The notes beneath the pieces were generated by a model. The model did no database searches. It was not told the origin of the DNA and saw only the letters and a list, made by a program, of their open reading frames with translations. Both the position numbers and the translations under genes were made by a program. From a virus, in IMG/VR virus record IMGVR_UViG_3300047321_000238, positions 48,297 to 112,296 of that record: a stretch of 64,000 nt of DNA; one strand, 5' to 3'. The first letter of the stretch is position 1, and each line of letters opens with the position of its first letter. Shown here in pieces: positions 3,083 through 51,228 of this stretch.

Positions 3083-3427
3083 TTATACAAATGGAACTCC
3101 TACTAAATTAGTACTACCGTTACCATCTTTATATATTCCACCACCAGTTAATACTCGTCCTGCGGCAGCTGCTCCTAAATAAGATCCAGCTATTTTACCA
3201 GCATCCCACTTAGTAACTTTACCTTCTGTATCGAAATTTTTACCGAAGGTCTTTGTTAATGATTCCATTCCTTCTCCTCGTAAGGCTCTGCCTGCAGCTT
3301 CTAATCCACCAAAGCCATTGTTAGCTATAGCATTAATAGCTTTATTAGATCCATTTCTTTTTGTACCATTATATGCTGCTTTAACTAGTGCGGCAGCTTC
3401 TTTAGCAGCATCATCGTATAAACCCAT
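3083..3427 (-). CDS. hypothetical Gly/Ala-rich protein, 114 aa
   Basis: Track ORF with AAGGAG RBS. Composition similar to 2437..3066. Confidence 0.55.
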   Translation of the reverse strand: MGLYDDAAKEAAALVKAAYNGTKRNGSNKAINAIANNGFGGLEAAGRALRGEGMESLTKTFGKNFDTEGKVTKWDAGKIAGSYLGAAAAGRVLTGGGIYKDGNGSTNLVGVPFV

Positions 3428-4565: not shown

Positions 4566-5098
4566 GTTAAATTCCCCCTTGTTCTTTTCTTTTCTCTATA
4601 TATTACTATCTATATCTCATATATTAATAACGTCTTGCCATATATTACTTATTCTAAATATTCTATTTAATTTCCAAATATTACCTTATATAGAGATGAA
4701 AAATTTATAAAAAATAATTTTAAAAAATAGAAAAGTTGAACTTTTAAAAAAAGCCTATAGGGAAAAACGAAAAATATAAAAAATTTCTAGGGGAAGTAGG
4801 TATATATATATATGTATATATGTTGAAAATGTAGCCCCATGGGTATCATTATCATTATCAAGTTGAACTGTTTCAGTAACCGAGTTGAATGGAATAACAT
4901 GCAACGTCATGCCACAACTCATGGAGGATCATGAAAAACTTATCTCTATCTGTCAAGATAACCTTAACTTTAAAAGACTTATTAATAACTAGTACAGTAA
5001 AGGCTTATATATGTGCATACATATATAGGTCTTATAGTGTACTAGATACACAAGCAATAGACTACATATAGTAGGTGAGCATAAGGAGGACAACTAGT
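4566..5098. promoter_or_regulatory. divergent AT-rich control region between the minus-strand and plus-strand gene blocks
   Basis: 533 bp with no ORFs. Contains ATATATTAC direct repeats and a (TA)n tract at about 4800-4830. Genes diverge from it on both strands. Confidence 0.4.
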
Positions 5099-5554
5099 AT
5101 GACAACTTTATCAATGGAGGCTTTAATGAGCTTAAGCAAAGAAGAATTAGCAAGAATGGTTATGGACTTACACAAAGACACATTAACAGGATGTTATAAA
5201 AGAGAAGTATTAGATACAGTGAAACAAGACTTATACACTGTAGCGTTTGTTGATGTTAATGGATTAAAGGCTATTAATGATACACAAGGTCATGAGTATG
5301 GAGATAAGCACATACTAAGTGTAGTAGATAGTATCAATGCTAATGTAAGGAAACAAGATACTGTAGTTAGGTATGGTGGAGATGAATTCATAATCATATT
5401 CAATGACTGTAGTATAGACAATGCTAAAGGTGCTATATCTAGGATAACATCTGCATCAGTGGGTATAGCACAACATACAGACTTAGATATGGCAATTAAA
5501 CTAGCTGATATGGACATGTATAAGAACAAAAGAAACTACTATGATGTAGTATAG
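5099..5554 (+). CDS. GGDEF-domain diguanylate cyclase-like protein (no sensor domain)
   Basis: Start taken at the ATG 9 nt after AAGGAGG. Motifs FVDVNGLKAINDTQGHEYGDKHIL and RYGGDEFIIIF match the GGDEF active-site region. Confidence 0.7.
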   Translation: MTTLSMEALMSLSKEELARMVMDLHKDTLTGCYKREVLDTVKQDLYTVAFVDVNGLKAINDTQGHEYGDKHILSVVDSINANVRKQDTVVRYGGDEFIIIFNDCSIDNAKGAISRITSASVGIAQHTDLDMAIKLADMDMYKNKRNYYDVV

Positions 5555-7749: not shown

Positions 7750-8367
7750 ATGGAAAACATCAATAAGAATTTAGACTTCATGGACTTAACAGGAAACGTA
7801 AAGGATATGAGAATTATCAATAATACACAAGTTGGTATATTCTCTGTTGTGCAAAAGCATTTAACAGAATCATATTTTCACACATCAAGAGGATATATCA
7901 AAGTTGATCCTGTTGTATCTATAATATGTGTTGAACATGCTAAAGGTAAAATGGAACTATTAGCTGGAATCAAGATGTTAGAAACAGTCCAAATGATTAA
8001 CTATTTGATTGAAAAGAATTTCACAATTGCTGAACTTCCTACAGAAGTTGCAAAGATCAGAAACTACAGAGCTATTATAAGAACTGTAGAAAATAAGTTG
8101 AAGTTCGAAGCTAAACAATTATTAGTAGCTAAAGAAGCAGAGAATAAAGAAATAGAGAATAAAGAAATAGAAACTACTGTAGTTGTTGAACCAATCAAAA
8201 AACAACTTCCTAAGATGAAGACTCTTTCTGATATACCTTCATATAGAGAAGTTGCTTTAACAGTTGAAGAAAAGAAGATAATGCAAAGCATTGTTCACAC
8301 TAAAGATATAGCATCATCTTTCTTCAACAAAAGTAAAATAATCAATATCTTTAGCAAAACTAAATGA
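7750..8367 (+). CDS. hypothetical protein, 205 aa
   Basis: Track ORF with GGTGAAAGGTGG RBS. Internal ENKEIENKEIE repeat. Confidence 0.5.
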   Translation: MENINKNLDFMDLTGNVKDMRIINNTQVGIFSVVQKHLTESYFHTSRGYIKVDPVVSIICVEHAKGKMELLAGIKMLETVQMINYLIEKNFTIAELPTEVAKIRNYRAIIRTVENKLKFEAKQLLVAKEAENKEIENKEIETTVVVEPIKKQLPKMKTLSDIPSYREVALTVEEKKIMQSIVHTKDIASSFFNKSKIINIFSKTK

Positions 8368-8419
8368 TAGATTATATACGTACTAAAGACAAATAAACTC
8401 CACCAGACCTTAGCAAGCA

Positions 8420-8900
8420 AATTCGCTTGAAAGGAGGTGATGCCTGGCAAGATATACGAACTTGGGTAGGCTGCTTGAACATGTTGTGCTTTTGATGCAG
8501 CAACAGTTGGTTGGGTGGGACAGAAACACAACAATGGGGGATGAAATAAACAGATTTCACTAACGAAAGGAAGAAACAAACAGAATGATATTTTCAAAAC
8601 TAAAGACGCTAAAGGAAGACTCGGCAAATTACCAACAACTATTCAGCCTGGAGGTTGATGAATTAAATTTTCTTCAATCTCTAGAAAGGAGGTTGATAAT
8701 CTAAATTTTTATCAGCCACCGAAAAGGAGGTTGGTAAGGATTATGACGTAACTTTACACATATCATTTAAGGAGGTTGATACTCACACATGGACTAATAT
8801 TAAAGGAGATGATGCTTGGCAAGAAATAGAAATGACTATAAATATGAAAGGAGGTGATGCTAAATCTAAGACTAATAAGACTACTGAAGGATTGTTCGTA
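8420..8900 (+). repeat. cluster of seven Shine-Dalgarno-like repeats (AAAGGAGGTGATGC x3, AAGGAGGTTGAT x4) with mini-ORFs
   Basis: Direct reading: 8431, 8800 and 8845 carry the GGAGGTGATGC type. 8645, 8686, 8721 and 8768 carry the GGAGGTTGR type. No ORF longer than 30 codons on the + strand. Local GC is elevated. Confidence 0.5.
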
Positions 8901-8927
8901 ATCTTTCAATGCATGGGCCTATAGTAT

Positions 8928-11900
8928 TTGAACTTAGGCACTATGAGTGACAGGGATAATGGGGTACAAATAAAAATATATGATGAAAAGGATGGATACA
9001 AAATGATAAACACAAACACATTAACTAATGGAACTACTACAACAAACACAAATGAAGGGATGGATGTACAAATGGTAAATATCAATGTAACAAACGTAGC
9101 TAAAATAGTAGGGGTATCAAATGAAGAAGTTGTAGCATTAGCTATAAGATTAGGTTTAGAAGTTTCAACATCAGGTAAGAAAATAAACAATGTTATTTCT
9201 ACTGCAATTGTAGTTGAAGCTGTTAATGATTTAATAGCTAAAGATGAAGTTGCAGTTACAAATATAGTAAACAATAATGAAGGGATGGATGTAAAAATGG
9301 TTAACAAGATTAAAGAGGAAATAATGGAAATGGTTTATTCTGAAATGAACAAGGAAATAGCTAAACAAGAAATTAGAGACGAATACTTAAACAGAGTTGC
9401 AACTGTTGCAGCTATAGTTGATGAATCTAATAAAAAGTACAAAAGAAATACTTTAAGCAAAGTAGAATTAGTTGATTATGTAGTAGCTAACAATATCGAA
9501 GTTAATGACAAAGAATTAAGAGCACTATATTCTCAATTAAATGCTGCAAGAGATAAAGAAGCTAAATCAGAATTAGTTCACAAGATCATAGATCAAATGA
9601 ATGAAGGTAAATTCACTTATAAAATGTATGCAACTGCTAATAAGTACAAGCACCTTTTATCTGAAGATGATACAATTACTTTTGAATTAGCATTAGATGT
9701 AGCTCTTAATAAGGCTTCTATGAAGAACTACAAGAACCTATTAGCTGTTAAAAGATGGACTAAAGATATCACTGTTGCATTATTAAGAAGAGTTGTTTGC
9801 TATACTGGTAATCAATATGAAACAGAAGTAGCTCCTCAAATGTTCAGTTCTCTAATCAGAGCTTGTGATGTTACAGTTAAAGATGTTGCAGATTCTAAGA
9901 TGACTTTAAATGGATACACTACTGATGAGTTACTATTATTCTCATTCGATAAAGATGTATTAAAATTAACTGGAAATAATGACAGAGAAGTATTAGCTAA
10001 AAAAGATTACCTAGCTAAAGTATTCTATATCATTGCTGGATTATCTGAACAAAAGGTTTATATAGTTGAAAGAAAATCAGGTATTGCAGATGTTTATACT
10101 AATATCAACAAGATCAAATTAAATGAAGGTGAAGTTATAAAACAATATGAATTCTTAGGAATAACTCCATCTGGTTTAAGATCTGGAACTATGACATTAG
10201 CTATCACTAAAGAAATTCACGCTGATGGAACTGTTGTTGAAAGAGATAGAAGAGTTGAAATCATGGACAAAGCTTCTGATAATTCATTCAGCATTAACTT
10301 TATCGTAGGTGCGAATGAAAATGGACAAGCTATATTCAAAGATTGCGAATCAGTACTTGATGCATTTAAAGAAATGTCTAGAATGATGTTATGTGCTACA
10401 TCTTCAAAAGTGCTTGGTAAATTAGACTCTTATGTTGTATTAGATAATTTATCTTTTGGTGCAGGATATAATGCTAAAGATACTAACTCTCCTGCTAAAA
10501 TGGGTGAAGAAAATTTCGTAGATTGTCAAGATACTACTGATGGTTTAGGATTAATATCTAATGATATGTTAAAAGAAAATCTTCAAGCTATGAACATTCC
10601 ATGCTCAATTAAAGACTTATTAGGAATGACATTCCAAGCTAGAGGTGGCGGATTAAAGATTGCTGCAATGTCAAGATCTAAAGAAGCTATTAGACTAGAA
10701 GCAAAAGCATCATTAAGCAGAGGAGCATCTGTATTAAGAGCTGTATTCAAAGGACAAGAAGTTAAAGCTAAAGATCTAACTGATGAAATGTTAGATAACA
10801 TGCAAGGATTGTTTGATGGTAATGGTATGAAGTTAATCGATCACAATGCTGAAATCGAATTAGTAATGCTTAAGAAAGCTTATTCATCTGACTCTAAATT
10901 ATCTGATGTTGTTAATATTATAATGATGGTTAATGATGAACAAGCTACTACAGCATTATTATCTTCTAAAATAAAAAGTCAAATCTTAGACAAATTAAAA
11001 GACATTGGTATAAACGTAGATTACAATGCAGAAACTGATGAAGTTATCAGCGTAAAATGTGATCTTAAGAACTTAAAAAGAATCAACAATGACAGTCAAA
11101 CAGTTGAATGGATGTTTAGATCTCTTCCTGAAACTATGATTGCATTAGCTCCTGGTGTTCAAAAGACAAACTTTAATAGCTTATTGAAAGGTTTAGCTAA
11201 CCTAATCAACGAGCTTAATGTTGAAGTTAATTGTGAATATACTGTTGTTCAATCAGATCCAGCAGTTAGATTTGGTGTAAGAATAATAAAAGAAGATGAA
11301 GTATTCTGCCCAAGCTTAATAGAAGTAAATAAAGTATCAGGTGTTAGACATCCAGTATCAAACTTATTTGCTGTTTCTACATTCAAGACACTTACTCTAA
11401 AAACTATCTTAAAGAGAATTGATAAATTGAATGTATCTCTTGAAGTTAAAAACATGTTATTTGAATTCTACAAAGGAGTAGAAGGTTATGCTATAATACC
11501 AGCATCTCACTACTACATGGAAAAACATGATGGAATGGATTTCGATATCGATGCTATGCAATTTTTCTTAGATCAAGAAGTAGTAGCAATACTTGAAAAG
11601 ACTTCTGATATAGGAACAATAATTGATAGATCTATTGATGAAGAAATGGATTGTTCTATTAAGGAATCTAATGATGACCATGCTATCAAAGCTTTCTACA
11701 AAGATATTAACAAGAAAGATTTCCACCCTATAGCTTATGATGTAAAAGTATCTGAAGAAAAGATAGCACCAGTTAAAGCATTAAAAGGAATGGTTATGCC
11801 TAAGAAGATTAATGTTGCTTCTACTGAAGATAATCATTACAAGAAAAATGCAAATGGAAGATACTCATTAGACTTCTCTTCAGTTGCTATGATGGTATTA

Positions 11901-13946
11901 GATTATTTCTTAAACCCAATAGATTCAGTTGGTATCATGGCAACAAACTTCTATAATAATGCTAAAATACTTATGGCATTAAAATCAATTAACACTGAAA
12001 TCACTAAAGAAATGAAACAATTCATAGTTCAAGGAATGAGAACAATGTTTTCTTGTAGTGGTTTAAAGAAGTATTCTTCTCCAATCAGAAAGAACAATGA
12101 CGGAACAAAATTTAACTACAACGATAGAAATAAAGTTGTTCTATGCAAAGATGTTTGTCACAAAATAATCAAAACATTTATCAACTCTAAAGGAGATTTT
12201 GCAGATTGTATTCAATTCTTAATTGATGTATGTATTTGTAGTAGATATCCAGCTGAAACTTCTATTGATAGTGCTAAGAAAATGTATAAAGTTATAAACA
12301 TGTTTGCATTATCTGGTTGTATTAAAGCTATGGGTTGTAAAAATGCTGTTAAATTCTTAAACTTTGATCCATATATGTTAGATGACCAAGGTAACTCTAT
12401 TGAAGAAGTAGAAACTACAAAAGCATTCACTAACATTATTGACATCTTTAATGCAGCTCAACCAAAAAATGCTCTACAATATTCAACAAACAATTTCTTT
12501 GGATTAAAATTAATAAAAGAAGAAATGTCATGTGTTGGTTGGGAAGATGCTGATAAGGCTATGTTAGCTTTCAATACAGAGAAAAAAGTAGCAGGTATTA
12601 AAGATCCTACTTATCTATTAAAAGAAAGACTAATGAACTTTGCTAATTCAGTTATAGTATTTGCAGCTAAAGAATTAGAAGCATTTGTTAAATCAGATGA
12701 AGCTAATGCTATCAGAAAAGAATTCAAAGGTTTCTACAATTCAGAAGATAATTATTTCAGAGTTGATAAAGTAGTATCTAACATCGTTGGTACTTATATC
12801 ACATTAACTGAATCAATCAAAGCTTCAGAAAATGATGAAATAGATGATATAACTGCAAAGAAATATCTTAAGACAAATGCATTACAAGCTCTAATGAACA
12901 CAGCTAAACTTTCATTTAAAACAGCTAGAAAACCAGTATCTGATGAAGAAATTGGAGCAGGTGTGTTCTATTATATGATTACTTCTTTTGAAAAAGAAAA
13001 AGACAATGTATGTACTTCAGTTAACTCTAAGATTCTTGATATCTTCCAAAAAGAGATATTAGCATTCTTAAAATCTAAAGGATATGATATGCTTGCTGCT
13101 GAAGAAATATTATATGCTGTTAATCCTGTAACTAACAGACAAGTTAAATTAAATACAACAGAAGGATTAACATGTTCTGCATATAATGGTCATGGTACAA
13201 TTGAATTAGAAGATGGTTCAATCTATTTATTAACTCTAAAGAATAAGAAAGCATCTTTTGATAATGGTACTATTTCTATAGTAGATGATAAGTATGTTGT
13301 TGTTCAACAAAGAAAAACTTTAGAAGAAAATATACAATCAGGATTCTACTTTGGTGCTAAAATGGAAAAAGGAATATTCAACAAAGCTAATCTTCTAATG
13401 CAAGATATTAAAAAGACTACTGGTGATTACAATGAATACAAAGCAGCATTAGCAGAAATAAATCCTAATAACATTTTAGCTGAGACACAATATGATGAAA
13501 TTCTTTTCAGAACAAGAAGAGAAATGGACGAAAGAGGAAAATCATATACAGCTAATCTTTTAATTGGTATGAAAGATGATCAAGAATGTTTAATAGCTGA
13601 GTTATACCTTAATACAATCGTTGCTCAATTATTACAAACTGCTGAGTTATCTGAAAGCAATGTAAGATTATTCATGACTGAAAATAGTTGTACTGTTAAC
13701 ATTATTGAAGACTCTCTATTAGCTGAAGTTGAATCAGTTAGCACTCCTGACACTATAAGTGATTCATTTGGATTAGATGACTTAGAAGGATTCAGTAACT
13801 CAATAATAGATTATTCTTGTTATGATGTTACTCCAGTTCAAGAAAACTATGATGAAAAACAATTCGTTGCAATTACAACAAACTACGATATTCCTCAAGT
13901 TGACATGTGCAATGACGAAAACTATTTAAATGGTTTAACTCAATAA
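8928..13946 (+). CDS. giant protein, 1672 aa, with a DFDID (DxDxD) motif; candidate two-barrel RNA polymerase-like enzyme
   Basis: Single uninterrupted ORF, track start TTG at 8928 (alternative ATGs at 8943 and 9004). Motif HDGMDFDIDAMQ resembles the beta-prime NADFDGDQM Mg-binding loop. Direct repeat NEGMDV[QK]MVN near the N-terminus. Confidence 0.8.
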   Translation: MNLGTMSDRDNGVQIKIYDEKDGYKMINTNTLTNGTTTTNTNEGMDVQMVNINVTNVAKIVGVSNEEVVALAIRLGLEVSTSGKKINNVISTAIVVEAVNDLIAKDEVAVTNIVNNNEGMDVKMVNKIKEEIMEMVYSEMNKEIAKQEIRDEYLNRVATVAAIVDESNKKYKRNTLSKVELVDYVVANNIEVNDKELRALYSQLNAARDKEAKSELVHKIIDQMNEGKFTYKMYATANKYKHLLSEDDTITFELALDVALNKASMKNYKNLLAVKRWTKDITVALLRRVVCYTGNQYETEVAPQMFSSLIRACDVTVKDVADSKMTLNGYTTDELLLFSFDKDVLKLTGNNDREVLAKKDYLAKVFYIIAGLSEQKVYIVERKSGIADVYTNINKIKLNEGEVIKQYEFLGITPSGLRSGTMTLAITKEIHADGTVVERDRRVEIMDKASDNSFSINFIVGANENGQAIFKDCESVLDAFKEMSRMMLCATSSKVLGKLDSYVVLDNLSFGAGYNAKDTNSPAKMGEENFVDCQDTTDGLGLISNDMLKENLQAMNIPCSIKDLLGMTFQARGGGLKIAAMSRSKEAIRLEAKASLSRGASVLRAVFKGQEVKAKDLTDEMLDNMQGLFDGNGMKLIDHNAEIELVMLKKAYSSDSKLSDVVNIIMMVNDEQATTALLSSKIKSQILDKLKDIGINVDYNAETDEVISVKCDLKNLKRINNDSQTVEWMFRSLPETMIALAPGVQKTNFNSLLKGLANLINELNVEVNCEYTVVQSDPAVRFGVRIIKEDEVFCPSLIEVNKVSGVRHPVSNLFAVSTFKTLTLKTILKRIDKLNVSLEVKNMLFEFYKGVEGYAIIPASHYYMEKHDGMDFDIDAMQFFLDQEVVAILEKTSDIGTIIDRSIDEEMDCSIKESNDDHAIKAFYKDINKKDFHPIAYDVKVSEEKIAPVKALKGMVMPKKINVASTEDNHYKKNANGRYSLDFSSVAMMVLDYFLNPIDSVGIMATNFYNNAKILMALKSINTEITKEMKQFIVQGMRTMFSCSGLKKYSSPIRKNNDGTKFNYNDRNKVVLCKDVCHKIIKTFINSKGDFADCIQFLIDVCICSRYPAETSIDSAKKMYKVINMFALSGCIKAMGCKNAVKFLNFDPYMLDDQGNSIEEVETTKAFTNIIDIFNAAQPKNALQYSTNNFFGLKLIKEEMSCVGWEDADKAMLAFNTEKKVAGIKDPTYLLKERLMNFANSVIVFAAKELEAFVKSDEANAIRKEFKGFYNSEDNYFRVDKVVSNIVGTYITLTESIKASENDEIDDITAKKYLKTNALQALMNTAKLSFKTARKPVSDEEIGAGVFYYMITSFEKEKDNVCTSVNSKILDIFQKEILAFLKSKGYDMLAAEEILYAVNPVTNRQVKLNTTEGLTCSAYNGHGTIELEDGSIYLLTLKNKKASFDNGTISIVDDKYVVVQQRKTLEENIQSGFYFGAKMEKGIFNKANLLMQDIKKTTGDYNEYKAALAEINPNNILAETQYDEILFRTRREMDERGKSYTANLLIGMKDDQECLIAELYLNTIVAQLLQTAELSESNVRLFMTENSCTVNIIEDSLLAEVESVSTPDTISDSFGLDDLEGFSNSIIDYSCYDVTPVQENYDEKQFVAITTNYDIPQVDMCNDENYLNGLTQ

Positions 13947-40359: not shown

Positions 40360-41928
40360 ATGAAAAGATTTAAATTTACAAAAACAGCGAGGATTTTATT
40401 AGTAATACTAGCTTTAGCTATAATAGGTGTGTTAGGTTGGAAAACTGGAGCAGCTAAAAAAGTAGTAACATTTGCAAAGAACGATGTATCTTCAGTATTT
40501 AGTAAAAATGATAGTACTGATGAAATGTATGCAAAAGCAGAAGCAATTAAAAAAGAAGATGGAGCTATTAATATATCATTAGATGAATGGGTTGGTTGGA
40601 AACCTATTATAGATGCTAACGGTGGTTTACAAACTGCTAAAGGAAGTATCTTAGATAAAAAAGGAATTAAATTAAACATTTCAGTAATTAATGATTATAC
40701 TCAATCAAGTAATGCTTTAATCAAAGGTGATCTTAATGCCGCTGGTTATACAGTAAATAGATATGCTTTTCTTTATGACAAATTTAAATCAGCTAATGTT
40801 GAAACTAATATGGGTATCATAATTGATAACTCCAATGGTGGTAACGGAATTATAGCTAAAAAAGGTATTAATAGTTTAAGAGATTTAATAGGTAAGAAGA
40901 TTGGTATTCCAAGATTCTCTGAATGTCAAGCAATGGTAGAATTCTTAATCCAAAAATCAGATTTAACAGCTGATGAAGCTACAAAATTAAGAGCAGGATT
41001 CGTTCCATTTGACTCTCCAGATGATACAGCTAAAGCATTCTATGCTGGAGAATTAGATGCAGCATCAACTTGGCAACCATATCTAACACAAGCAACATCT
41101 ACAGTAGATGCACATATATTGTTCTCTACAAAAGATGCTCCAAACTTAATTATGGATGGTCTTGTGTTTAGAAAAGATTTCGCAGATAAGAATAAAGAAA
41201 CTATCGAAAAATTATTAGAAGGTATTTTAGAAGCACAAGCAATATATTCTACAGATGCAAAAGCTATATCTCAATCTTTCCCAATGTTTGCAACTCAAAC
41301 AGATAAAGAAACTTTAGATATGACTGGTGATTCACAACCAACTAATAGTGCAAGTATGTTAAATTATATGGATAAAAACGGAGCTGCTGTCAACTTATTC
41401 AGAGATATGGCTAACATATGGTCTGGATTAGGAGAAAAATCAGATCCAGCAAATGCAGCAGTTGCATTTGATAACACTTATATTAAAGATGTTGCACCTA
41501 AATATACTGATGCTAAGGTAGCAAAGCCAACATTTACTGCAGAACAAAAACAAACTGCACAATCTCAAGATAATAAACAAGCTTTATTAAGTCAAAAATT
41601 ATCTATTAGTTTTGATGTTGGTAGTGCAAGTATATCTTCAGATAGTTATGCATCATTAAAAGAATTCTTTAACACAGCGAATATATTAAACGGTACTGTT
41701 ATCCAAATTGAGGGTAACACAGATAATACTGGAGATGCAACAGCTAACCAAGCATTATCTGAAAAGAGAGCACAAAGTATTGCAAAATACTTACAAGCTC
41801 AAGGTTTAGATGCAAGTAGATTCGTAGTTATTGGTAATGGACCTAATAAACCAGTTGCAGATAATAATTCTGCCGAAGGTCAAGCTGCTAATAGAAGAAC
41901 AGATATGTACTTCAAAGTAGTTAAATAA
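40360..41928 (+). CDS. membrane-anchored substrate-binding-like protein with C-terminal OmpA/MotB peptidoglycan-binding domain
   Basis: N-terminal TM or signal segment. C-terminal GNTDNTGDATANQALSEKRAQSIAKYL...GNGPNKPVADNNSAEGQAANRRTDM matches the OmpA-C pattern. Confidence 0.6.
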   Translation: MKRFKFTKTARILLVILALAIIGVLGWKTGAAKKVVTFAKNDVSSVFSKNDSTDEMYAKAEAIKKEDGAINISLDEWVGWKPIIDANGGLQTAKGSILDKKGIKLNISVINDYTQSSNALIKGDLNAAGYTVNRYAFLYDKFKSANVETNMGIIIDNSNGGNGIIAKKGINSLRDLIGKKIGIPRFSECQAMVEFLIQKSDLTADEATKLRAGFVPFDSPDDTAKAFYAGELDAASTWQPYLTQATSTVDAHILFSTKDAPNLIMDGLVFRKDFADKNKETIEKLLEGILEAQAIYSTDAKAISQSFPMFATQTDKETLDMTGDSQPTNSASMLNYMDKNGAAVNLFRDMANIWSGLGEKSDPANAAVAFDNTYIKDVAPKYTDAKVAKPTFTAEQKQTAQSQDNKQALLSQKLSISFDVGSASISSDSYASLKEFFNTANILNGTVIQIEGNTDNTGDATANQALSEKRAQSIAKYLQAQGLDASRFVVIGNGPNKPVADNNSAEGQAANRRTDMYFKVVK

Positions 41929-49797: not shown

Positions 49798-51228
49798 ATG
49801 TTAAAAGATATTAGAAAAAATCCAATTAAGTTAACTGATTGCTATAACTTATCACATGAGGAATTAAAATGTAATACAGACTTTGAAGTTTCTCATATGT
49901 ATAATAGAGCAGACGGAATGTTATTATATGGCTTTAAAGAAATTGCATTAGGTATTCTTAGTATAAAGATTACAGAAGAAATGGTTGAAGATGCAGCAGT
50001 TGATGCTGAAGAATTAAACTTAACTTTCCCTAAAGATTTATGGATGAGAGTAGTTACAGAATGTAGAGGATATGTTCCATTAGAAGTTCAATCAGTTCCA
50101 GAAGGAACATGGTGCCCTAAAGGAACTCCATTTGCTCAAGTAAGAAATACCGTAGAAGGTTTCGGAGAAATGGTTACATGGTTTGAAGGCGTGTTTATGA
50201 TGGCGTATTTCCCATCTACATGTGCAACTAGAGCATTTGAAATGAGAAACTATTTAGAAGAAAAGAAAGAACAATACGGATACGATGATAGCTTTCTATG
50301 GAGATTTCATAGTTTTGGATTCAGAGGACATAAAAGCTTGGAAGATGCGTACTTCGCAGGAACTGCATGGTCAACATTCTTATTAGGAACAGATGATTTC
50401 CATATAAGACAACACATGTCAGAAGATACTGTTATGGGAAGTATTGCAGCGTTAGCTCATAAAGTTACGCAACAATATGATAATGAATATGATTGTTTCA
50501 TTCGTTCAATAGATTATGCAGCTGCAAGCGGTAAGAATATCGTAGCTTTAGTTATAGATACTTACAATGCATATAGAGTTATTCAAGAATATGTGTTAAA
50601 ATTAGCTGAGTATGCTAAAGGAAAAGGAGTTCATATTGTATTTAGACCAGATAGTGGAGACATTTTTGGACAAGCAATGGCTATATATACAAGAGTTTCA
50701 ACTGCAGGTTATAAAAATGTAAGTGTAATAATTGGAGAAGGTATGAGTTTTAATAATGCTAAATCAATGGATAAAAAATTTGAGTTAATGGGAGTGCCAT
50801 TAACATTTATTGCTTATGGTATAGGAGCAGGATTCTATAAAGATATAGAAAGAGATACTTTAGGATGGGCAATGAAGACTGGTTATTCTAATGGAGCTCC
50901 AAGAATGAAAGTAGTTAAGTCGGATCCATTTAAGCAATCAATACCTGGGATTGTAGATTTAATGTACGATGAAGATGATTTAATGACAGTATATATAGAA
51001 AAAGAAGATAATGCTGCTGATTCAATATATGAATGTATATATAGATATGATCTTGATCAAAATACAACACCTTCTATGAAAGACTTATCTTATATTCCTG
51101 CACAAGCTATTAAGGATAGAGCATACAATACTACAGGATATAGAGTTGGAGAAAAAATACAAGAAAGAATAATCATATCTAATGAAATTAAAGAACTTAT
51201 AAATGTAATAACAAAAAAATATGAATAA
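49798..51228 (+). CDS. nadV: nicotinamide phosphoribosyltransferase (NadV/NAMPT family)
   Basis: Blocks EVQSVPEGTWCPKGTPF, FHSFGFRGHKS...GTDDFH, FRPDSGD, IIGEGM, IAYGIGAG align with the NAMPT conserved regions (EIKAVPEG, HDFGYRG, RPDSG, IQGDG, IAFGSGGG). Confidence 0.8.
   Translation: MLKDIRKNPIKLTDCYNLSHEELKCNTDFEVSHMYNRADGMLLYGFKEIALGILSIKITEEMVEDAAVDAEELNLTFPKDLWMRVVTECRGYVPLEVQSVPEGTWCPKGTPFAQVRNTVEGFGEMVTWFEGVFMMAYFPSTCATRAFEMRNYLEEKKEQYGYDDSFLWRFHSFGFRGHKSLEDAYFAGTAWSTFLLGTDDFHIRQHMSEDTVMGSIAALAHKVTQQYDNEYDCFIRSIDYAAASGKNIVALVIDTYNAYRVIQEYVLKLAEYAKGKGVHIVFRPDSGDIFGQAMAIYTRVSTAGYKNVSVIIGEGMSFNNAKSMDKKFELMGVPLTFIAYGIGAGFYKDIERDTLGWAMKTGYSNGAPRMKVVKSDPFKQSIPGIVDLMYDEDDLMTVYIEKEDNAADSIYECIYRYDLDQNTTPSMKDLSYIPAQAIKDRAYNTTGYRVGEKIQERIIISNEIKELINVITKKYE

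Follow-up and report, generated by a model that had tools for sequence, protein, structure and literature searches.

Orphan Shine-Dalgarno motifs and an apparent -1 frameshift gene in a conserved, structured leader ahead of a probable phage RNA polymerase gene

The repeat-rich block at positions 8420-8927 of the window, the whole 64-kb stretch of viral DNA analysed here, is a conserved, structured composite leader, in effect a mini-operon, which precedes a giant gene whose product is probably a single-chain two-barrel RNA polymerase. The initial annotation had taken the block for non-coding DNA with seven perfect complements of the 16S rRNA 3' tail; it is instead a leader that includes a 39-codon ORF with its own Shine-Dalgarno (SD) sequence and a start-less -1 frame. 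Of the three explanations proposed at that time, a uORF-rich leader of the giant ORF came closest, although the tiny ORFs of 2-9 codons do not fit the part of uORFs. For the SD-like motifs we favour, at about even confidence, a role as cis-acting docking sites for the 16S tail, which would act as frameshift stimulators and mRNA stabilisers.

The SD-like repeats form a real cluster, far above chance. The sequence AAGGAGGT occurs eight times in the 64 kb against 1.3 expected, a count reached in 0/100 shuffles, and five of the eight copies lie within 8431-8855. Perfect matches of at least 10 nt to AGAAAGGAGGTGATCC, the complement of the 16S 3' tail, are present in the 64 kb only at 8429 (13 nt), 8683 (11 nt) and 8846 (13 nt), with shorter ones at 8723 (9 nt) and 8769 (8 nt); the SDs of real genes in the window match the tail over up to 8-9 nt. 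The sites first reported are genuine, their positions having been misplaced by 1-4 nt: the first motif starts at 8430, 8802 and 8847, and the second (AAGGAGG) at 8648, 8686, 8724 and 8769. Not all are perfect, the copies at 8648 (CTGGAGG) and 8802 (GGAGATG) being degenerate. Two further early observations were confirmed, namely the diverged duplicate units, which form a 27-nt pair (8430-8456 and 8802-8828, 89% identity, family D3), and the higher local GC content (up to 0.42 against about 0.29). Tandem repeat units are spaced by 38, 38 and 45 nt, and the seven copies of the window derive from tandem duplication of a heptamer-hairpin module and from duplication of an orphan-SD segment.

About 10 distinct loci have a leader of this kind, 400-640 nt long, before a homologue of the giant gene, and the giant proteins of these loci are 31-56% identical. 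The leader begins with an orphan SD (GAAAGGAGGUGAU), followed by a small hairpin and an H-type pseudoknot; next come a small ORF that includes a slippery heptamer, hairpin C and a -1 frame that holds another orphan SD. The corresponding features of the window are the following.

8401-8411, + strand: upstream mimic of the 16S tail (CACC..CCUU), predicted partner of the first orphan SD
8429-8447, + strand: orphan SD copy 1, GAAAGGAGGUGAU followed by GCCUGG; complementarity to the 16S 3' tail over 13 nt, start codons absent from the 4-9 nt range
8442-8471, + strand: predicted hairpin H0 (GCCUG-G-CAAG ... CUUG-GG-UAGGC), joining the orphan SD to the pseudoknot
8470-8533, + strand: predicted H-type pseudoknot; stem A 8470-8474/8497-8501, stem B 8482-8488/8527-8533, G-rich loop GGGUGGG
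8565-8704, + strand: ORF1; SD GAAAGGAAG at 8565-8573, ATG at 8585, 39 codons, stop at 8702-8704
8648-8659, + strand: SD-like copy CUGGAGGUUGAU; GGAGG at 8650-8654, 10 nt 5' of heptamer 1
8665-8671, + strand: slippery heptamer 1, A_AAU_UUU, in the ORF1 frame
8675-8696, + strand: hairpin after heptamer 1 (UCAAUC / GGUUGA, 6 bp), read from the sequence; paralogue of hairpin C
8683-8697, + strand: SD-like copy AGAAAGGAGGUUGAU, 11-nt match; GGAGG at 8688-8692, 10 nt 5' of heptamer 2
8700-8924, + strand: ORF2 (-1 frame); 75 open codons, 73 of them after heptamer 2, stop at 8922-8924
8703-8709, + strand: slippery heptamer 2, A_AAU_UUU, in the frame that a -1 shift at heptamer 1 would reach
8709-8737, + strand: hairpin C (UUAUCAGC / GUUGGUAA); its loop and 3' arm are the SD-like copy AAAAGGAGGUUGGUAA (8721-8737)
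8769-8780, + strand: extra SD-like copy AAGGAGGUUGAU, a tandem-duplication product with no heptamer 3' of it
8802-8828, + strand: degenerate orphan-SD copy AAAGGAGAUGAUGCUUGGCAAGAAAUA, K-G-D-D-A-W-Q-E-I in ORF2; 89% identical to 8430-8456
8846-8860, + strand: orphan SD copy 3, GAAAGGAGGUGAUGC, 13-nt match; K-G-G-D-A in ORF2
8887-8906, + strand: hairpin D (AAGGAUU / AAUCUUU), with compensatory variants
8933-8952, + strand: conserved block CUUAGGCACUAUGAGUGACA, from the alignment
8988-9005, + strand: ribosome binding site AAGGAUGGAU and ATG (9003) of the giant gene, conserved in L002, L003, L004 and L074
9003-13946, + strand: giant gene, 1647 aa, probable single-chain two-barrel RNA polymerase

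Comparison with related phages from among some 34 polymerase clusters, which had been suggested as a check, revealed that both the leader and its SD-like motifs are conserved, the motif being kept in 9 of 11 leaders with matches of 12-14 nt. Most relatives have one to three SD-like sites per leader. In L011 and L008 the leader and the polymerase gene are present and the motif is absent, and in L076 and L078 the polymerase gene lacks any leader. The pattern AARGGRGGTGR gives 13 hits in 5.6 kb of leaders against five in 181 kb outside them, and all five of the latter are real SDs with an ATG 7-9 nt past GGAGG; real genes of these phages use the same GAAAGGAGGTGAT, followed by ATG 7 nt on. Every leader copy is carried by the coding strand. 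Searches of GenBank phages at the DNA and protein levels with the region and the giant protein returned no match, scans of IMG/VR with GGAGRTGATGCYTGGCAAGA, AAAGGAGGTGATGCCTGG and the pseudoknot pattern recovered only chance hits and the known L007 contig, a second word-index protein search with a profile found the same five proteins again, and a search with the downstream gene led to a contig ending before the leader. Within the region no tRNA or tmRNA was found, and a promoter and terminator scan gave no terminators and no convincing + strand promoter at the motifs.

The orphan SDs display 12-14 nt of complementarity to the 16S 3' tail and have no start codon at a working distance. Initiation uses an SD-to-start spacing of 4-9 nt; here an ATG or GTG follows GGAGG by just 2 nt, none occurs at 4-9 nt, and the adjacent ATG is not conserved, being lost in L074. 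Copy 1 lies 574 nt 5' of the polymerase ATG and has orthologues in L002, L073, L074 and L071, in the last of which an A->G change gives a G.U pair with the rRNA; in the window, L073, L074 and L071 this 5' copy is upstream of ORF1 and outside every ORF. Copy 3 is located 157 nt 5' of the same ATG, and orthologues of the internal orphan SD are found 136-184 nt 5' of it in L002, L003, L004, L074, L006 and L007. The alignments indicate that the motif is under selection at the nucleotide level, because it is invariant where codon usage predicts about 11% identity for K-G-G-D, because a rare GCC triplet is kept and because its variants, A->G changes seen in L071, L002 and L003, preserve G.U pairing with the rRNA. 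The GCC triplet makes up 3% of Ala codons, and the predicted hairpin H0 would account for its conservation.

The 5' domain is predicted to be structured. Minimum free energy folds of the window and L073 pair CACC with GGUG and CCUU(UC) with (GA)AAGG, and the CCACCA.ACCUU sequence is conserved between the two, while hairpin H0 is predicted in the window, L073, L071 and L074. The pseudoknot next to it shows strong covariation in a hand-assembled alignment of eight sequences, in which 93% of cells are paired and 9 of the 13 pairs changed on both sides, a level reached in 0/500 shuffles. For the helix of hairpin C, 98% of cells are paired in six sequences and four pairs changed on both sides (the helix alignments, of 6-8 sequences, were all assembled by hand). 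Compensatory variants of hairpin D occur in L002 (two copies), L004 and L003, and in the region of conserved block CUUAGGCACUAUGAGUGACA a 30-nt stretch is identical in L004 and L074. A search of Rfam 15, run with relaxed E-value limits, gave no match with E<1 in the window region and none whatever for the leaders of L007 and L073; at gathering score no family matched the leader in nine loci. As modelled, the pseudoknot is a new RNA motif, outside any Rfam family.

The claim that the block holds no ORF over 30 codons was not borne out, since it contains the 39-codon ATG ORF with an SD (ORF1, 8585-8704), a 33-codon TTG ORF and the 75-codon start-less frame at 8700-8924 (ORF2), whose first 43 codons include no ATG, GTG or TTG. 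The ORF1/heptamer/ORF2 layout is also present in L002, L004, L073, L074, L006 and L007, and in 7/7 loci an SD with an ATG or TTG start stands in the heptamer frame. In these loci the -1 frame opens 1-14 codons ahead of the heptamer, runs for 44-78 codons and lacks in-frame ATG, GTG or TTG for 35-62 codons; dinucleotide shuffles matched its openness in 0.1-1.7% of trials per locus, the stop density of the AT-rich leaders being about 6-9% per codon. Because this frame is open over such a length without a start codon in seven loci, the small gene appears to be decoded through -1 ribosomal frameshifting. The distance from heptamer to orphan SD is a multiple of three throughout.

In roniviruses, -1 frameshifting is documented at the heptamer sequence AAAUUUU, and a spacing of 10-14 nt has been reported as optimal for SD-stimulated -1 frameshifting. 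GGAGG is placed 10 nt 5' of both window heptamers; the single-module loci L002, L004, L073, L074, L006 and L007 have no upstream SD-like sequence. Heptamer 2 is the orthologue of the single heptamer of the relatives. The window would require two successive -1 shifts. Hairpin C starts 0-3 nt past the heptamer, nearer than the roughly 5-9 nt of a classical downstream -1 stimulator. At the protein level, a basic RIIK motif in ORF1 is common to L002, L074 and L006, and the fused ORF1-ORF2 product has a transmembrane-like segment in L002, L073, L006 and L007, with no hydrophobic segment in the window and L004. Fused products gave nothing significant against Pfam and PHROGs. Codon-level constraint on ORF2 was not found, substitutions by position being 10/11/14 between L006 and L007 and 10/12/12 between L004 and L074, and a 2-nt indel lies close to its 3' end. 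In L011, L071 and L008 a conventional small hydrophobic ORF occupies the place of ORF1/ORF2: that of L011 is continuous, with neither heptamer nor SD-like motifs; L071 has the 5' orphan SD and no heptamer, and BLASTP of its small ORF against the L002 fused product detected no similarity.

We infer 30S docking, mRNA stabilisation and frameshifting from what is observed, namely the conserved motifs, the helices and the arrangement of the frames. The SD-like motifs would be selected for pairing with the 16S rRNA 3' tail and not for starting the adjacent tiny ORFs, and they may be divided into two kinds, the orphan SD GAAAGGAGGUGAU(GCCUGG) and the hairpin-borne AAGGAGGUUGAUAA. Orphan SDs, placed at the 5' end of the leader before hairpin and pseudoknot, with one or two more about 140-180 nt before the polymerase start, most likely serve to hold 30S subunits in place or to make ribosomes pause, with no initiation; in this way the polymerase mRNA, which is long and AT-rich, would be protected or tuned, as happens with the STAB-SD of Bacillus cry3A. 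The AAGGAGGUUGAUAA kind forms the purine-rich loop and 3' arm of the conserved hairpin right after the in-frame A_AAU_UUU, at which ribosomes translating ORF1 would shift -1 into ORF2. After tandem duplication of this module in the window each heptamer also has a GGAGG 10 nt 5', a stimulator geometry of the dnaX type, and the duplicated module and orphan-SD segment together account for the seven repeats. The closeness of hairpin C to the heptamer, the lack of an upstream SD-like sequence in single-module relatives and the need for two shifts speak against the frameshift reading, and the unconstrained ORF2 codons, the 2-nt indel and the absence of a hydrophobic segment in the window and L004 products against a conserved protein product. 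The predicted partial pairing of the 5' orphan SD with its cis mimic speaks against free 30S docking, and the loci without motif (L011, L008) or without leader (L076, L078) speak against an obligatory role.

The conventional small ORFs of L011, L071 and L008 correspond in part to what the initial annotation had named as the sign of a decayed pseudogene. Functionless leftovers of a broken small membrane-protein gene and of gene starts would also agree with the window's fused product being devoid of a hydrophobic segment, with the unconstrained codons of ORF2 and with the window's extra copies, which come from tandem duplication and include the degenerate 8648 and 8802. Simple decay does not, however, account for a 13-nt motif that is invariant across giant proteins of 31-56% identity and whose substitutions keep G.U pairing, for a -1 frame that stays open in seven loci despite its expected stops, or for the covariation of the flanking helices, and we consider it unlikely. 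A purely frameshift-related apparatus, in which all the SD-like motifs pause ribosomes on ORF1 and ORF2 without any effect on the polymerase mRNA, would draw on the ability of internal SD-like sequences to slow translocation and on L011, where motifs and heptamer are missing together; the 5' orphan copy, located outside ORFs in four loci and retained in L071 without a heptamer, makes this rather unlikely. It is quite improbable that the 5' domain (cis mimic, orphan SD, H0 and pseudoknot) constitutes a ribosome-sensing switch, in which the orphan SD would be contested between its mimic and free 30S subunits, and the latter would remodel H0 and the pseudoknot, thereby setting small-ORF translation or frameshifting and polymerase mRNA stability. 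If true, polymerase production would be coupled to the host's spare translational capacity, and the domain would represent a cis-regulatory RNA of a new class, with the anti-SD tail of the ribosome as its ligand.

Two readings put forward at the outset fared worse. An abundant non-coding phage RNA that titrates 30S subunits and shuts down host translation, that is, a ribosome or anti-SD sponge, could make use of five sites of 8-13 nt complementarity within 430 nt, none with a usable start codon. This high copy number is specific to the window, though, with one to three sites in orthologous leaders and none in two; several sites lie in a frame that is kept open and presumably translated, the 5' copy is predicted to pair in cis, the element always occupies a fixed place in cis ahead of the polymerase gene, and phage translation would suffer too, all of which renders the sponge very unlikely. 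We assign a similarly very low probability to a further reading, DNA-level sites (operators, iterons or promoter elements) through which a phage protein would control how the polymerase gene is transcribed. Operators and iterons typically take the form of direct repeats within intergenic control regions, and TTGAAA at 8427-8432 resembles a -35 hexamer, but the 20-odd copies over all loci lie on one strand only, a protein-binding site would not be expected to match the complement of the 16S tail over 13 contiguous nt, A->G variants suit RNA wobble pairing, no sigma-70-like + strand promoter was found at the motifs, and parts of the motif are arms of covarying RNA helices. Minigenes of the lambda bar kind, in which ORFs of 2-9 codons would be translated and cause peptidyl-tRNA drop-off, are extremely unlikely: start-stop or tiny ORFs do exist at ATG 8440, 8658, 8743, 8789, 8809 and 8857, yet their GGAGG-to-ATG spacing is 2-3 or 12-13 nt instead of the required 4-9 nt, and they differ from relative to relative (MPGKIYELG*, MPGKISLS*, MPGTIGKTDVF*, MPG* in L071, ATG lost in L074) while the nucleotide motif is kept. 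Other candidates were rejected, namely a group I intron or its remnant (no exon continuity and no Rfam hit), a T-box (the likeness is confined to GGGUGGG), a pairing of tail chaperone with tape measure (the giant protein is polymerase-like, and ORF1 is not large enough), transcriptional slippage (a T run of just 4-5 nt) and initiation of ORF2 at a non-canonical codon past the hairpin SD (the 4-9 nt interval offers none).

The favoured reading of the motifs as docking sites finds a parallel in the STAB-SD of Bacillus thuringiensis cry3A (Agaisse and Lereclus, 1996), where processing of the long cry3Aa transcript leaves a stable mRNA, with an SD-like sequence around -125 that protects it. Polypurine 5' stabilisers are also known from SP82 early RNA (Hue et al., 1995), and a strong SD protects hbs mRNA from RNase J1. 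Both in cry3A and here a near-perfect SD (GAAAGGAGG...) is uncoupled from a start codon in a long Firmicute-type leader, roughly 125-180 nt 5' of the ORF, with extended 16S complementarity of at least 9 nt and no start at a functional distance. In cry3A it is 30S binding that protects the processed stable form, and by analogy the leader copies may be stabilising as well. The phage leader differs in having several copies, some within a frame kept open, and in the predicted partial pairing of one copy with a cis mimic of the 16S tail and the fusion of that copy to a hairpin-pseudoknot domain.

The window further resembles dnaX in its X_XXY_YYZ heptamer, in frame within a started ORF, with GGAGG 10 nt 5' and a hairpin 3', and in the combination of a short zero-frame tail with an open -1 extension that has no start codon of its own. 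It departs from dnaX in the heptamer itself (A_AAU_UUU, not A_AAA_AAG), in hairpin spacing (0-3 nt, not about 5-6 nt), in the need for two successive shifts, in the lack of an upstream SD in single-module relatives, and in an extension devoid of codon-level conservation. Like lambda bar, the block has phage tiny ORFs adjoining SD sequences; unlike it, the spacing is unfit for initiation, and the conserved unit is the SD-like sequence and not the ORFs. The T4 gene 32 mRNA has a structured autoregulatory leader with a 5' pseudoknot. An H-type pseudoknot near the 5' end of a key phage gene's long leader is common to both; there is no sequence relationship, and the pseudoknot modelled here has a G-rich loop 3 (GGGWGGG).

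To our knowledge, orphan SDs that act without a translation start come from few experimentally studied Firmicute mRNAs. To these the leader contributes a set that occurs naturally and has been conserved in evolution, every member being complementary to the 16S tail over 12-14 nt. An undescribed pseudoknot and what appears to be a -1 frameshift gene accompany them, and the whole precedes the gene for a probable RNA polymerase of an unusual, single-chain two-barrel type, in large AT-rich phages of a little-known group. If our interpretation holds, structural studies would gain a new RNA motif, Gram-positive expression systems would gain portable parts for stabilisation or frameshifting, and the locus would serve as a compact model for the combined control of a key phage enzyme by ribosome docking, mRNA decay and recoding.

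The 635-nt gap at 8368-9002, which separates a 205-aa ORF (7750-8367) from the 1647-aa giant ORF starting at ATG 9003, contains a real and highly non-random cluster of Shine-Dalgarno (SD)-like repeats. AAGGAGGT occurs 8 times in the 64 kb against 1.3 expected, and five of these eight copies lie inside 8431-8855, which bears out the repeat cluster of the initial annotation. Matches to the 16S tail were scored over the full window, on both strands, using AGAAAGGAGGTGATCC, which we take to be the complement of the Firmicute 16S 3' tail; this assignment is supported by the related contigs, since their real genes use GAAAGGAGGTGAT followed by ATG 7 nt on. Perfect matches of at least 10 nt occur only at 8429 (13 nt), 8683 (11 nt) and 8846 (13 nt), with shorter ones at 8723 (9 nt) and 8769 (8 nt), and the genuine gene starts of the window reach 8-9 nt at most. 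The repeats are of two kinds, type I and type II; type II copies form tandem units spaced by 38, 38 and 45 nt, and 45 nt also separate the copies at 8802 and 8847. The elements of the gap are:

8429 and 8846; degenerate at 8802: type I repeat, GAAAGGAGGTGATGC(C/T)TGG
8686, 8724 and 8769; degenerate at 8648: type II repeat, AAGGAGGTTGAT(A/G)
8470-8474/8497-8501 (stem A) and 8482-8488/8527-8533 (stem B): H-type pseudoknot, after hairpin H0
8585-8704: small ORF (ORF1), 39 codons

As a whole the earlier observation was largely confirmed, with corrections: its repeat coordinates were off by 1-4 nt, and ORF1 contradicts its claim that ORFs longer than 30 codons are absent.

The window comes from a 108-kb metagenomic contig, and among GenBank phages neither the region nor the giant protein has a DNA or protein match. 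Contigs encoding giant-protein homologues (31-56% identity) were examined, and an ORF-free gap of 400-640 nt was found before the giant gene in the loci of group A (L002, L004/L005, L073, L074/L075 and, partially, L003) and group B (L006, L007/L010, L011). Gene callers placed no genes in any of the gaps before the giant gene. In L071, a variant, the gap lies farther upstream and two genes are inserted; the L008 leader is of a different type, and L076/77 and L078/79 lack a leader. What had been described as a non-coding block with mini-ORFs is a conserved composite leader.

Several further features were observed in these contigs. A giant-protein homologue in L012 (JAQYAV010000095.1), whose contig was assigned to a Lachnospiraceae MAG, hints at Clostridia of gut-like habitats as hosts. 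L008, an IMG/VR phage contig, contains a hammerhead ribozyme of type III that reaches the Rfam gathering score (1428-1486; 48.5 bits, E 2e-07), with the giant-gene homologue following about 1.1 kb downstream. The motif CATACGTGCGAG(A/T)CAAAT, conserved in the group B leaders of L006 (5455-5500) and L011 (790-820) and absent from L007, has a terminator-like T-run on its upstream side and the pseudoknot on the other, and may be a phage-specific promoter. All groups, even L008 with its different leader, share a conserved block ..CTTA..(C)A(A/G)GTG(C/A)C.. (window 8933-8952, L004 about 3290-3320, L007 about 2443-2462) that precedes the polymerase ATG by 45-60 nt and of which L004 and L074 have 30 nt in common without a change; this block may act as a promoter for some other polymerase, or form a structure.

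The giant protein (ORF 9003-13946) is probably a single-chain two-barrel RNA polymerase, with an invariant HDGMDFDIDAMQ motif and weak structural matches to QDE-1/RDR2, the crAss-like gp66 virion RNA polymerase and P23-45 gp96; its family forms about 34 clusters at 50% identity in public data, none of them annotated. Two in-frame copies of AAGGGATGGATGTA(C/A)AAATG (9055-9074 and 9280-9299; peptide NEGMDV(Q/K)M), an element also present in L003, lie inside the 5' end of the gene, closely resemble its own ribosome-binding site and ATG (AAGGATGGATACAAAATG, 8988-9005), and may be internal starts giving N-terminally shorter isoforms. Elsewhere in the window, a GGDEF (diguanylate cyclase) domain is encoded by an ORF of 151-159 aa among small early-looking genes (5075-5554), and there are two auxiliary metabolic genes, for an OmpA-domain/NMT1-like lipoprotein (40360-41928) and a nicotinamide phosphoribosyltransferase (49798-51228).

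Nine of 11 leaders carry type I, in every case on the sense strand and complementary to 16S over 12-14 nt. In the DNA of all the contigs together, the pattern AARGGRGGTGR was counted 13 times in the leaders (5.6 kb) and 5 times in the remaining 181 kb, and all five outside copies are ordinary SDs with ATG 7-9 nt after GGAGG. Where it lies in an open frame, type I encodes K-G-G-D-A; codon usage predicts its exact nucleotides about 11% of the time, and the GCC that is kept is a 3% codon. Its variants, GGGGG (L071) and GGTGGT (L002, L003), all keep G.U pairing with the rRNA. The contiguous 13-nt identity to the 16S complement, the strand specificity and the wobble-compatible variation point to pairing with the anti-SD by an RNA element, and disfavour both a protein-binding DNA site and mere codons. 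We are confident that the SD-like motifs of the conserved leader are RNA elements under selection for pairing with 16S rRNA.

Directly 3' of the 5' type I copy lies hairpin H0 (window 8442-8471), predicted in four lineages and followed by the pseudoknot, whose stem B differs in sequence in almost every lineage. In a hand-assembled alignment of 8 sequences, 93% of cells pair and 9 of 13 pairs change on both sides; shuffles matched the observed values in 0/500 cases on four of five measures and 1/500 on the fifth, and slid controls dropped to 19-60% paired. Loop 3 holds a conserved GGGWGGG, and no Rfam family matches the structured leader RNA. Four tracts of G3 or longer (UGGG, GGGWGGG, GGGGGA) surround the pseudoknot at 8465-8540 and in orthologues, in a genome of about 30% GC, and could form tertiary contacts or a G-quadruplex. 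CCACCA.ACCUU, conserved upstream in the window and L073, is predicted to pair with the orphan SD (a type I copy lacking a start codon at working distance), as a cis mimic of the 16S tail. The pseudoknot domain might regulate access to the leader through some ligand or partner.

Downstream of the pseudoknot, all group A loci, L006 and L007 carry a small ORF with a plausible SD and ATG or TTG. Within it, 7 of 7 loci have an A_AAT_TTT heptamer in the X_XXY_YYZ register and a -1 frame that opens 1-14 codons before the heptamer, continues for 44-78 codons and is free of ATG/GTG/TTG for 35-62 codons. Stop density in these leaders is about 6-9% per codon, and an open stretch as long as the real one arises in just 0.1-1.7% of dinucleotide shuffles per locus. 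The spacing between the heptamer and the internal type I copy (78, 99, 48, 51, 78, 99, 144) is divisible by three in every case. In roniviruses, AAAUUUU has been documented as a site of -1 slippage. Hairpin C begins 0-3 nt after the heptamer, too near for a classical -1 stimulator; its loop is a purine-rich AAAGGRGG, its 3' arm the GUUGAUAA part of type II, and its helix shows 98% pairing and two-sided changes at four pairs. The fused ORF1/ORF2 product has a strongly hydrophobic segment in L002, L073, L006 and L007, and a conventional small hydrophobic ORF occupies the same place in L011, L071 and L008. A role at the protein level is disfavoured by the missing hydrophobic segment in the window and L004, the lack of a third-position excess of substitutions in ORF2 in the close-pair comparison, a 2-nt indel near the end of ORF2 and the proximity of hairpin C. 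We conclude that the -1 frame stays open because ribosomes pass through it; the product itself may be of little importance in some lineages.

In the window the heptamer-hairpin module is present twice in full, with heptamers at 8665 and 8703, alongside two internal copies of type I and two additional copies of type II. Relatives have a single module and a single internal type I copy, and this difference accounts for the seven repeats of the window. The duplication places a GGAGG 10 nt 5' of each heptamer (8650-8654 for the first, 8688-8692 for the second), a spacing that falls in the 10-14 nt optimum for stimulation of -1 frameshifting by an internal SD in dnaX. From ATG 8585, -1 shifts at 8665 and again at 8703 lead into a 73-codon frame ending at 8924. 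We somewhat favour decoding of the small ORF through a -1 shift at A_AAU_UUU, with the duplicated type II copies of the window as putative upstream stimulators. What the sequences themselves show is the motifs with their enrichment and conservation, the helices and the arrangement of the frames; the shift, the docking described below and the regulatory part of the pseudoknot domain are inferred from these.

The initial annotation had also offered three possible readings: a ribosome or anti-SD sponge, lambda bar-like minigenes, and a uORF-rich leader that controls translation of the giant ORF. Initiation uses a start codon about 4-9 nt after GGAGG. The tiny ORFs do exist in the sequence, but their starts lie 2-3 or 12-13 nt from GGAGG, outside that range. 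Bar-type minigenes are rejected because the ATG or GTG of type I is just 2 nt from GGAGG, the peptides differ per locus (MPGKIYELG*, MPGKISLS*, MPGTIGKTDVF*, MLTLILLYY*, MPTLLLYY* and, in L071, MPG*), and AGG replaces ATG in the internal copy of L074, which retains the K-G-G-E-A-W reading. The sponge found no support. The closest precedent for the orphan type I copies is the cry3A STAB-SD: trimming of the long primary RNA leaves a stable mRNA with a perfect SD in its 5' region, about 125 nt before the start codon; the internal type I copies lie 136-184 nt before the polymerase ATG, and other polypurine stabilisers related to STAB-SD are on record. Each component of the leader is of a known kind, but their combination and the pseudoknot are new. 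By analogy we tentatively suggest, as a possibility short of an even chance, that the 16S tail docks on orphan type I copies without starting translation, and that the AT-rich polymerase mRNA of 5 kb would be protected or tuned in this way.
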